Below, one piece after another: positions 15,091 to 18,974 of a stretch of 64,000 nt of DNA. Positions within the stretch are counted from its first letter, which is position 1; each line of letters starts with the position of its first letter. The translations under genes were made by a program, and so were the position numbers. Below the pieces are notes generated by a model, which was given only the letters and a program-made list of their open reading frames with translations, ran no database searches and was not told where the DNA came from. This DNA is from Octopus vulgaris (Eukaryota): positions 95,914,001-95,978,000 of the forward strand of contig OX597823.1 in assembly GCA_951406725.2 (NCBI GenBank), in the 5' to 3' direction.

Positions 15091-18000
15091 TCATCATCAT
15101 CATCATCATCATCATCATCGTTTAACGTCCGCTTTCCGCGCTAGCACGGGTTGGACGGTTTGACCGGGTCTGGGAAGCCAGGGGCCGCACCAGGCTCCAG
15201 TCTGAATCTGGCAGAGTTTCTACGGCTGGATGCCCTTCCTAACGCCAACCACTCCGTGAGTGGATTGGGTGCTTTTTACGTGCCACCTGCACAGGGGCCG
15301 GAGGGTCCGGCATCGTCACGATCGGTTCGAGCATTTTAACGTGTCAGCGGCACGGGGGCAACGAGGTCCGGGGTACTTTGGGGATCCAGGGTACTTTGGG
15401 GATCCGGGGTACTTAGAATGAGTAGGGGGTATGTGGAATTGCTGCAGAAAGCAGCCCGGGTCTTTGTAGTCACAGCATTTATCGTCACTGAGTAACGTAA
15501 TTAGGTAGAGGAAAGAAATACAGATATTCTAGAGTTGAGTTGGGGAGGGGAGGTCCAGTTGAGGCGGGTAATATAGGAGAGCAACCAGTGGGGAAGGTTG
15601 GGGTAAGGAGGAACGATGGCAGGAAGGGTTGGTGTAGGTTCCTAAGAAATAAAGACATTCGTTATCGTCACTGAGTAACGTTATTAGGTAGAGGAAAGAA
15701 TACAGATATTCTAGAGTTGAGTTGGGGAGGGGGTCCAGTTGAGGTGGGTAATATAGGGGAGCAACCAGTGGGGAAGGTTGGGGTAAGGAGGAACGATGGC
15801 AGGAAGGGTTGGTGTAGGTTCCTAAGAAATAAAAACGTAGGATATTACGAGGCGGGAGGGTGCTAAAGGGGATAGTCGGAATGAGGCAGTGTCAGGAGGA
15901 AGCGTAAGATCGGTGGGCAGTTGATGAGCTATGGCGCTAGCAGCTTGTCTTTTCACAGTGAAAGCATATGAGGAGAAGGGGTAGTGGGGGAGGAGGAGGG
16001 AGTAGGGCGTACCCGGTGTAGATGAGTAAGGCGTATCCGGTGTAGATGGTGAGGACAGGGTATACTGGTATTGGTGGTGGGGGGTGAGGAACAGTGTTCA
16101 CCGGTATTGGTGGTGTTGGCGGTGAGAACAGTGTTCACCGGTATTGGTGGTGGGGGTGAGAACAGTGTTCATCGGTATTGGTGGTGGGGGTGGGGGGGCG
16201 GGCGCACCGCCAATGGCTGAAAGATGGGAAGAGATGGGATTACGGCTTGAGGTAGCCTAGCCTAAGGTTAAATTTTGTAGAGAGAGAGATAGAAAGATAA
16301 ATCAAGTTATGGCGAAGGCTTGAAAGTAGCCTAAAAAGGTTAAATTTTCGTAACAATGTATGAATAAACGTAGTAACAACGAATAAAATAGTAAGATAAA
16401 TTTTTAAGAACTTGCTGCGGACATCGATCGGGAGTTGAAATTGAAGAAGAAAGTAAGTTGAATAGGGAATTTAAATTGTAGAATCGTAATGGTAAGAGGA
16501 GGAAAAAGACCGCCAATGGCTGAAAGATGGGAAGAGATGGGATTACGGCTTGAGGTAGCCTAGCCTAAGGTTAAATTTTGTAGAGAGAGAGATAGAAAGA
16601 TAAATCAAGTTATGGCGAAGGCTTGAAAGTAGCCTAAAAAGGTTAAATTTTCGTAACAATGTATGAATAAACGTAGTAACAACGAATAAAATAGTAAGAT
16701 AAATTTTTAAGAACTTGCTGCGGACATCGATCGGGAGTTGAAATTGAAGAAGAAAGTAAGTTGAATAGGGAATTTAAATTGTAGAATCGTAATGGTAAGA
16801 GGAGGAAAAGACCGCCAATGGCTGAAAGATGGGAAGAGATGGGATTACGGCTTGAGGTAGCCTAGCCTAAGGTTAAATTTTGTAGAGAGAGAGATAGAAA
16901 GATAAATCAAGTTATGGCGAAGGCTTGAAAGTAGCCTAAAAAGGTTAAATTTTCGTAACAATGTATGAATAAACGTAGTAACAACGAATAAAATAGTAAG
17001 ATAAATTTTTAAGAACTTGCTGCGGACATCGATCGGGAGTTGAAATTGAAGAAGAAAGTAAGTTGAATAGGGAATTTAAATTGTAGAATCGTAATGGTAA
17101 GAGGAGGAAAAAGACCGCCAATGGCTGAAAGATGGGAAGAGATGGGATTACGGCTTGAGGTAGCCTAGCCTAAGGTTAAATTTTGTAGAGAGAGAGATAG
17201 AAAGATAAATCAAGTTATGGCGAAGGCTTGAAAGTAGCCTAAAAAGGTTAAATTTTCGTAACAATGTATGAATAAACGTAGTAACAACGAATAAAATAGT
17301 AAGATAAATTTTTAAGAACTTGCTGCGGACATCGATCGGGAGTTGAAATTGAAGAAGAAAGTAAGTTGAATAGGGAATTTAAATTGTAGAATCGTAATGG
17401 TAAGAGGAGGAAAAGACCGCCAATGGCTGAAAGATGGGAAGAGATGGGATTACGGCTTGAGGTAGCCTAGCCTAAGGTTAAATTTTGTAGAGAGAGAGAT
17501 AGAAAGATAAATCAAGTTATGGCGAAGGCTTGAAAGTAGCCTAAAAAGGTTAAATTTTCGTAACAATGTATGAATAAACGTAGTAACAACGAATAAAATA
17601 GTAAGATAAATTTTTAAGAACTTGCTGCGGACATCGATCGGGAGTTGAAATTGAAGAAGAAAGTAAGTTGAATAGGGAATTTAAATTGTAGAATCGTAAT
17701 GGTAAGAGGAGGAAAAGACCGCCAATGGCTGAAAGATGGGAAGAGATGGGATTACGGCTTGAGGTAGCCTAGCCTAAGGTTAAATTTTGTAGAGAGAGAG
17801 ATAGAAAGATAAATCAAGTTATGGCGAAGGCTTGAAAGTAGCCTAAAAAGGTTAAATTTTCGTAACAATGTATGAATAAACGTAGTAACAACGAATAAAA
17901 TAGTAAGATAAATTTTTAAGAACTTGCTGCGGACATCGATCGGGAGTTGAAATTGAAGAAGAAAGTAAGTTGAATAGGGAATTTAAATTGTAGAATCGTA

Positions 18001-18974
18001 ATGGTAAGAGGAGGAAAAAGACCGCCAATGGCTGAAAGATGGGAAGAGATGGGATTACGGCTTGAGGTAGCCTAGCCTAAGGTTAAATTTTGTAGAGAGA
18101 GAGATAGAAAGATAAATCAAGTTATGGCGAAGGCTTGAAAGTAGCCTAAAAAGGTTAAATTTTCGTAACAATGTATGAATAAACGTAGTAACAACGAATA
18201 AAATAGTAAGATAAATTTTTAAGAACTTGCTGCGGACATCGATCGGGAGTTGAAATTGAAGAAGAAAGTAAGTTGAATAGGGAATTTAAATTGTAGAATC
18301 GTAATGGTAAGAGGAGGAAAAAGACCGCCAATGGCTGAAAGATGGGAAGAGATGGGATTACGGCTTGAGGTAGCCTAGCCTAAGGTTAAATTTTGTAGAG
18401 AGAGAGATAGAAAGATAAATCAAGTTATGGCGAAGGCTTGAAAGTAGCCTAAAAAGGTTAAATTTTCGTAACAATGTATGAATAAACGTAGTAACAACGA
18501 ATAAAATAGTAAGATAAATTTTTAAGAACTTGCTGCGGACATCGATCGGGAGTTGAAATTGAAGAAGAAAGTAAGTTGAATAGGGAATTTAAATTGTAGA
18601 ATCGTAATGGTAAGAGGAGGAAAAAGACCGCCAATGGCTGAAAGATGGGAAGAGATGGGATTACGGCTTGAGGTAGCCTAGCCTAAGGTTAAATTTTGTA
18701 GAGAGAGAGATAGAAAGATAAATCAAGTTATGGCGAAGGCTTGAAAGTAGCCTAAAAAGGTTAAATTTTCGTAACAATGTATGAATAAACATAGTAACAA
18801 CGAATAAAATAGTAAGATAAATTTTTAAGAACTTGCTGCGGACATCGATCGGGAGTTGAAATTGAAGAAGAAAGTAAGTTGAATAGGGAATTTAAATTGT
18901 AGAATCGTAATGGTAAGAGGAGGAAAAAGACCGCCAATGGCTGAAAGATGGGAAGAGATGGGATTACGGCTTGA
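15091..18974 (-). mobile_element. 3.9-kb composite non-coding retroposon (family B tail, VNTR body, 5' monomer array)
   Basis: (CAT)n tail at 15091-15119 with family B terminus; 18-bp x2.7 repeat at 15367-15414; 183-bp duplication at 15479-15653/15662-15833; ~34-37-bp x3.5 repeat at 16067-16190; 302/303-bp monomers from 16206. Confidence 0.75.
16206..18974. repeat. Tandem array, 9 full plus 1 partial copies of a 302/303-bp unit
   Basis: accgccaatgg recurs at 16206, 16509, 16811, 17114, 17416, 17718, 18021, 18324, 18627 and 18930. The only differences seen are one A-run length and one G>A change in the last full unit. Confidence 0.97.

Follow-up and report, generated by a model that had tools for sequence, protein, structure and literature searches.

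A long ORF-less element of the Octopus vulgaris genome with a tandem monomer head and an RTE-type terminus

Two kinds of described retroelement come closest to the one considered here. The first comprises the bipartite RTE long interspersed nuclear elements (LINEs) without an open reading frame (ORF), namely RTESINE1/2, WALLSI3, MAR4_MD and Bov-A, for which transcription by RNA polymerase II (Pol II) has been proposed (PMC5786205). The second is the L1 of mouse and rat, an autonomous LINE of the L1 clade with arrays of monomers in its 5' untranslated region (5' UTR), in which copies of the youngest subfamilies have 3-4 monomers on average and different subtypes occur together in long arrays. 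The subject of this work lies in a stretch of 64,000 nucleotides of Octopus vulgaris DNA (contig OX597823.1, positions 95,914,001 to 95,978,000 of the forward strand; below, the window). Read on the minus strand from 18974 to 15092 it forms a single unit of about 3.9 kb, and it is probably a recently inserted copy of an abundant, ORF-less element that begins with an array and has an end of RTE type. An RTE LINE likely copies the element in trans, and a promoter inside the monomers likely drives its transcription. Both halves of this arrangement, the bipartite RTE parasite and the L1 monomer head, are known, but their combination was not found in the literature searched, which lay outside Repbase, Dfam and the subscription journals and held no description of the family or of an RTE element with a monomer array. 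In order from the 5' end, the element and its borders consist of the following parts.

18971-18977, minus strand: outer copy of a 7-bp target duplication, ATATCAA, from comparison of the flanks; an (AT)n run precedes it.
16206-18974, minus strand: head array of nine monomers of 302 or 303 bp with a 44-bp terminal redundancy, from Tandem Repeats Finder (TRF) and read depth; candidate internal promoter.
16048-16205, minus strand: C-rich variable number tandem repeat (VNTR) of about four units of 34-37 bp, from TRF; its copy number differs among family copies.
15834-16047, minus strand: middle body, including a 24-bp duplication (16000-16047), from TRF; it has blocks in common with the sister element described below.
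15479-15833, minus strand: 183-bp tandem duplication, from TRF; single and duplicated forms occur within the family.
15340-15478, minus strand: segment that holds an 18-bp VNTR (15367-15414); the terminus module recurs here in degenerate form (15334-15371, 74%).
15120-15339, minus strand: RTE-type terminus, with a conserved motif (15225-15248) and then a short 3' end, from the metagenome locus L005 and 14 other window loci.
15092-15119, minus strand: (GAT)n microsatellite tail.
15085-15091, minus strand: the 7-bp target duplication again, inner copy, whose beginning keeps the register of the tail repeat.

The repeats are well defined by TRF. The array (16206-18974) has a period of 303 and 9.1 copies with 99% matches, the C-rich VNTR (16048-16192) a period of 34 and 4.1 copies, the larger duplication (15479-15833) a period of 180-183 and two copies, and the smaller VNTR (15367-15414) a period of 18 and 2.7 copies; the tail (15090-15119) is (ATC)10. 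An earlier note on this DNA had described a VNTR of about 35 bp, a 183-bp duplication, an 18-bp VNTR and a trinucleotide tail, all of which are recovered here, together with a 24-bp duplication at 16000-16048 that was missing from its list. The same note took the element to be non-autonomous, with no credible ORF and no tRNA head, and this holds: the longest stop-to-stop frame within the element is 120 amino acids (aa), none of the seven frames tested reaches the Pfam cut-off, ARAGORN finds no tRNA, and a search of both strands with the usual patterns of the polymerase III (Pol III) A and B boxes gave no match at one mismatch, whereas the tRNA-like short interspersed nuclear element (SINE) at 14690-14950, taken as a control, has both boxes. 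A tRNA-derived SINE was rejected as a classification on the lack of A/B boxes at the head and the ARAGORN result.

With the bipartite RTEs the element shares the lack of an ORF and of a small-RNA head, the LINE 5' UTR motif with a short 3' end, and the microsatellite tail (PMC5786205). Unlike them, it is 3.9 kb long and has a 2.8-kb tandem head and several VNTRs, and no parent LINE is assigned to it; the main text of PMC5786205 does not use the word 'tandem'. With the 5' UTR arrays of mouse and rat L1 it shares a variable number of head-to-tail units rich in CpG, of which the outermost is incomplete, as well as a tether behind the array and heads that can be exchanged (PMC6454616, PMC9022269, PMC5381506). 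It is unlike L1 in having no ORF, an RTE-type end, units of only 36% GC and a homogeneous array, and in the 6-8 units per body suggested by read depth. Membership of L1 itself was rejected, there being no ORF1, ORF2 or poly(A).

The array consists of 9.1 units, with one substitution and three 1-bp gaps among them. Six of the nine monomers are 303 bp long and three are 302 bp, with one T fewer in a T run, a difference that may reflect read errors, and the outermost monomer carries one C>T at a CpG. The tandem array of nine 303-bp monomers claimed previously is real, but the monomers are not strictly identical. The description of a partial plus nine full monomers is also accurate when the inner junction sets the phase of the unit, the same 44 bp being found at the start and the end of the array. 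CpG has been retained, as claimed, with an observed/expected ratio of 1.32 in the array against 0.37 in the window, and on the element strand the array is 67% pyrimidine. The internal duplicated motif noted in each monomer is found at monomer positions 205-236 and 277-309 (82%, E 5e-4). Just two 5' ends of family copies were observed; they fall within 12 bp of each other on the 303-bp unit, too few to show a cluster.

Public sequencing runs provide evidence that the array is not peculiar to this locus. There are 24 runs listed for the region 15420-16560; 20 of them contain it or part of it and 19 contain at least half of its words, the holders coming from 11 studies with three organism labels and one metagenome. 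Contigs were compared for four runs over 15662-16520 and four over 15003-15660, five different runs altogether; run X20, with a share of 0.05, is left out of account. Head-to-tail joints, from the end of one monomer to the start of the next, are present in X1, X2 and X18 (at least three of the four runs), and the median ratio of monomer to body depth is 6.1, 7.4, 7.7 and 6.9 in the four runs, which cover three organism labels; depth sums do not equal copy numbers, and only the ratio and its constancy are used here. Given the constant monomer excess and the joints in independent runs, the array is a trait of the family. One X18 contig spans the junction of body and monomer (85 + 33 letters) and then leaves at 16238 into unrelated sequence, and thus looks like a copy that was 5'-truncated within its first unit. 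Tandem monomers, linked to the body, are accordingly found in independent runs, which supports the earlier note. The monomer motif has no match in metagenome_contigs or genome_contigs.

The family is also variable. The partial-unit copy in X18 and the unit-length variants, such as a shortened monomer in X1 and X2 (joint from 16369 to 16212), suggest that monomer number varies; VNTR units are skipped in family copies (skips within 16051-16193); and the 183-bp unit is single in X1, X2, X3 and X18 and doubled in one X2 contig, whose depth is 2188 compared with 10-25 for the lowest X2 contigs listed. A second X18 contig runs from the terminus motif through to 15478 with one difference. An X3 contig ends at 15589 in what we take to be a cDNA template-switch adapter, which would mean RNA from the strand opposite to the element; this is one contig of a multi-copy family, and does not establish expression.

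The depth data also bear on another reading, in which the monomer belongs to a satellite or minisatellite of its own that lies next to a retroposon by chance, at this locus and a few others. Unlinked arrays would give an excess of monomer depth as well, and among the matches listed the junction is bridged by one contig (31-letter rule). However, the ratio keeps to 6-8 across four runs and three organism labels, depth is continuous across the body-monomer junction in all four runs, and at the present locus one target duplication encloses array and tail together. We regard a satellite origin as very unlikely.

The borders of the element have the appearance of a retrotransposition. ATATCAA is present on both sides, at 18971-18977 and 15085-15091; a 7-bp flank match arises by chance in 0.5% of random point pairs, or 1% of those beside an (AT)n run. 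The last four bases of ATATCAA are also monomer sequence, giving a 4-nt microhomology at the 5' end, and its first bases continue the tail. Such an overlap with both tail and monomer is as expected of target-primed insertion, and in RTE-related elements the tail repeat has been linked to the first base of the target duplication (PMC6007223). Target-primed scars are therefore present in the form of the 7-bp duplication, the tail and the truncated-looking X18 copy.

It was also suggested previously that the monomers might derive from a small circular RNA. On this account a 303-nt circle was copied in a rolling fashion, as in a retrozyme, and a template jump joined the product to an RTE tail. Rolling synthesis would be in keeping with the near-identity of the units, their common founder and the redundancy at the ends of the array. 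The doubled monomer nevertheless has no hammerhead core (CTGANGA) on either strand, its predicted fold is no better than that of shuffled sequence (z of +1.8 and +0.5 against 60 shuffles), and none of the 23 Rfam matches at E<=5 reaches the gathering score or is a ribozyme. In addition, the array is one-armed, has the same joint to the body in X18, and is followed by an RTE-type tail. Lacking a hammerhead and a stable monomer fold, the circle is unsupported, and it is the most improbable of the explanations considered.

The age of the array and its mode of expansion can be approached through single bases. At position 16464 all nine monomers have A, whereas T makes up 99.6% (X1), 100% (X2), 99.99% (X7) and 100% (X18) of the depth in the family. 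Seven other sites vary in 12-57% of the depth in X1 and X2 and are invariant in this array. Polishing of the assembly towards the family majority would have given T at 16464, and it follows that at least most of the units share the rare base. Subject to the effects of assembly consensus, the sequence shows the units to be copies of a single founder, made when the family was already diverse, although smoothing within the locus may contribute. The proposal of a very recent origin is well supported by this founder signature and by the near-identity of the units. If X1 holds the locus and the base at 16464 is private to it, the order of magnitude would be 2,500 monomers and 400 bodies.

How one unit became nine is less clear. 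The unit may have been copied repeatedly during reverse transcription by way of the 44-nt redundancy, for which we would put the chances a little below even, or the expansion may have been at the DNA level, from an insert of 1.1 units or in the source copy, an account that is a serious though somewhat less probable one. As far as can be judged from the sequence, the two fit equally. We lean to re-copying on two grounds: the homogeneity and very recent date of the array, and the strong renewal that an average of 6-8 units in the family would call for. That the homogeneity of the array is itself a product of assembly smoothing is improbable. The same two models are discussed for mouse L1, where the mechanism of array renewal is called unclear, and where unequal crossing-over is held responsible for a 50-unit array in which subtypes are mixed (PMC6454616).

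An older relative of the element is present in the same window, and is informative about which parts belong together.

12066-12790, plus strand: older sister element with a single head of 230 bp, a collinear but shorter body, the same terminus and a (GAT)n tail.

Its terminus, at 88%, is the closest in the window to that of the element, and a comparison of the two bodies alone scores 115, compared with 64 +/- 8 for shuffled sequences, none of which (0/200) reaches 115. The sister head is pyrimidine-rich, and the short motif at which it meets the body is also that of the array junction. Homology between sister head and monomer was tried and rejected, as 35 of 200 shuffles score as high. With the same body and terminus under another head, the sequences indicate that body plus terminus is the older unit, on which heads differ. 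The 5' UTRs of L1 LINEs differ in a comparable way (PMC5381506). The sister is set in TA microsatellite sequence, of which a TA-rich stretch of 1.4 kb (10687-12065) leads up to it.

The terminus (220 bp) is far more widespread, matching 14 other window loci, with the long matches at 70-88%; the earlier note's statement that it is common to more than a dozen short copies is thus correct. Six of the nine loci checked have the upstream terminus module in two or three copies, and tandem duplication on the 5' side seems common among short copies of the terminus. In the short copies at 26305-26600, 33642-33900, 54588-54870, 59822-60070 and 61001-61100 (all on the minus strand) the module is tandemly repeated two to three times upstream of the terminus motif.

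In the contig collections, the exact 24-nt motif (15225-15248) occurs at 12 loci in metagenome_contigs and has no match in viral_contigs or genome_contigs. At one of these 12, L005 (JGI contig Ga0066842_10002856), it directly precedes a long ORF, a single one of 1015 aa with Exo_endo_phos and RVT_1 domains; at L011, an ORF seems by eye to begin at the contig end behind the motif. None of the 12 loci matches the element body or the monomer. A single ORF with endonuclease and reverse transcriptase is the architecture of an RTE-clade LINE, which is in line with the RTE-type terminus recognized by the earlier note. Since the motif stands directly before the L005 ORF, the terminus is read as the last part of a LINE 5' UTR with a short 3' end attached to it, which on this sequence comparison would be the bipartite layout of a non-autonomous RTE. 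Most of the L005 relatives (among 120 listed) are about 1,000-1,100 aa and lie on 3-4-kb contigs. L005, an intact element, has a PHD-like finger after the reverse transcriptase core, below the Pfam cut-off, and many of the 120 relatives listed have a PHD match.

The main rival to an RTE derivative that carries its own LINE-type 5' region is composite capture, whereby an abundant short RTE-derived retroposon gained an unrelated promoter and VNTR region, its heads were swapped, and no autonomous LINE with this head ever existed. The core of the terminus has about 200 times the depth of the body and also stands behind other bodies, an excess that fits capture as well as it fits deletion. One of these is at 42835-43300 (minus strand), where the terminus with three tandem modules is attached to an unrelated body with a 31-bp tandem repeat (43216-43278), this being another family on the same tail. 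Five contigs of X7 join different sequence to the body at 16210, and the sister head, as noted, has no detectable relation to the monomer. On the other hand, no part of the element matches a recognizable donor, the natural place of the motif is the end of a LINE 5' UTR, and the swapping of 5' UTRs is known from LINEs too (PMC5381506). We consider capture unlikely, though clearly less so than a satellite.

Capture would make the element akin to SVA, whose parts include SINE-R and poly(A). The element is like SVA in being long, non-coding and VNTR-bearing, and SVA is moved in trans by a LINE (PMC3287187). Unlike SVA, it has no hexamer head, no Alu-like or endogenous retrovirus-derived part and no poly(A), it has an RTE-type end, and its main array is 5'-terminal. 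Only the VNTR is in common, and membership of SVA/LAVA was rejected for this reason; comparisons with Pfam, Rfam and ARAGORN traced no part to a recognizable donor or to another class of element. The label 'SVA-like' used previously is thus no more than an analogy, and a better reading of the parts is a long 5' region of LINE type with an RTE 3' end.

Several further observations weigh against the RTE derivation that we prefer. The assignment of L005 to RTE is inferred from its architecture, and not from a tree, and L005, which is from another organism, has a 3' end dissimilar to the tail of the element. Among the public-run contigs listed, none of the loose ends has an ORF behind the 3' side of the motif, so that an autonomous partner with this head did not come to light. 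The junction at 15478/15479 is a weak link, spanned by X3 with 57 + 30 letters, and X18 and X2 also carry different upstream sequence there. Depth sums cannot serve as copy numbers, the target duplication is short and lies in AT-rich sequence, the flank at 15003-15112 was skipped as repeat, so that the empty site could not be seen, and there is no TATA box in the monomer on either strand.

We infer an RTE helper, a Pol II promoter in the units and an origin by ORF loss, and propose the following mechanism. Pol II would initiate inside a monomer, a start suggested by the absence of Pol III boxes, the retention of CpG and the precedent of mouse L1; by this analogy the monomers are likely to be a renewable internal promoter. 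An RTE protein would then bind the 3' terminus, nick AT-rich DNA and prime on the (GAT)n tail, leaving the 7-bp duplication and the 4-nt 5' microhomology, of which the scars are observed and the enzyme is presumed. Each round that started inside the array would leave it shorter, and the array would therefore have to be rebuilt, all nine units at this locus coming from one founder; on the re-copying route the end of the cDNA would re-anneal at the 44-nt redundancy. The element itself would have arisen by loss of the ORF from an RTE LINE with a long 5' region of monomers plus tether, which we consider the most likely origin, with a probability slightly better than even. A wider and more tentative idea, which at present we would sooner doubt than accept, is that RTE-clade elements of this genome have a self-renewing promoter: reverse transcriptase would re-copy one 5' unit several times at each insertion into a clonal array, serving both intact LINEs and the ORF-less parasites that swap heads.

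Two molluscan systems should be mentioned in this context. The LP-SINEs of gastropods and bivalves are likewise non-autonomous, have no tRNA head, and may be transcribed by Pol II from a 5' piece that derives from a LINE; the LINE-like head of these SINEs measures about 70 bp, and no monomer array was noted in PMC4758252. RTE-2_OV of Octopus vulgaris is an RTE-clade LINE with a microsatellite 3' end and represents a possible kind of helper (PMC9115989). Its 5' UTR is about 600 nt, and the words 'monomer' and 'tandem' are absent from the main text of PMC9115989; a search of part of the supplements gave no match to any of five window motifs, and files 5-8, which lay outside it, could hold the RTE-2_OV sequence.

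The element extends the bipartite RTE parasites from the size of a SINE to about 4 kb. Its long young arrays, with units that vary across the family and are clonal at the locus, mean that the models of renewal can be separated by assembly and long reads. If self-renewal is true, hundreds of young loci with private bases would record the regeneration of monomer arrays, a question still open for mouse L1, and should the units be promoters, there would be, on a rough estimate, several hundred arrays with retained CpG scattered near genes.

One gene can be recognized in the window. An 84-bp exon of FMNL type at 62707-62790 on the plus strand, with AG/GT ends, encodes an N-terminal segment of FMNL (PDB 4yc7, E 4.3e-9; also 4ydh). 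The element, being on the minus strand, points against the gene, which agrees with the antisense orientation given in the earlier note. As no first, upstream or other FMNL exon was found in the window, an intronic position of the element is not established.

The remaining features of the window are minor. The tRNA-like SINE at 14690-14950 (minus strand) lies between two TA runs, 140 bp from the tail of the element. Broken frames resembling Tc1/mariner transposase are seen by eye at 19744-20500, 57888-58500 and 61168-62240 (minus strand), the one frame tested having no Pfam match (E 0.01). Lastly, a 94-aa frame at 52522-52803 (plus strand) resembles by eye the C-terminal part of a LINE reverse transcriptase, again with no Pfam match (E 0.01).

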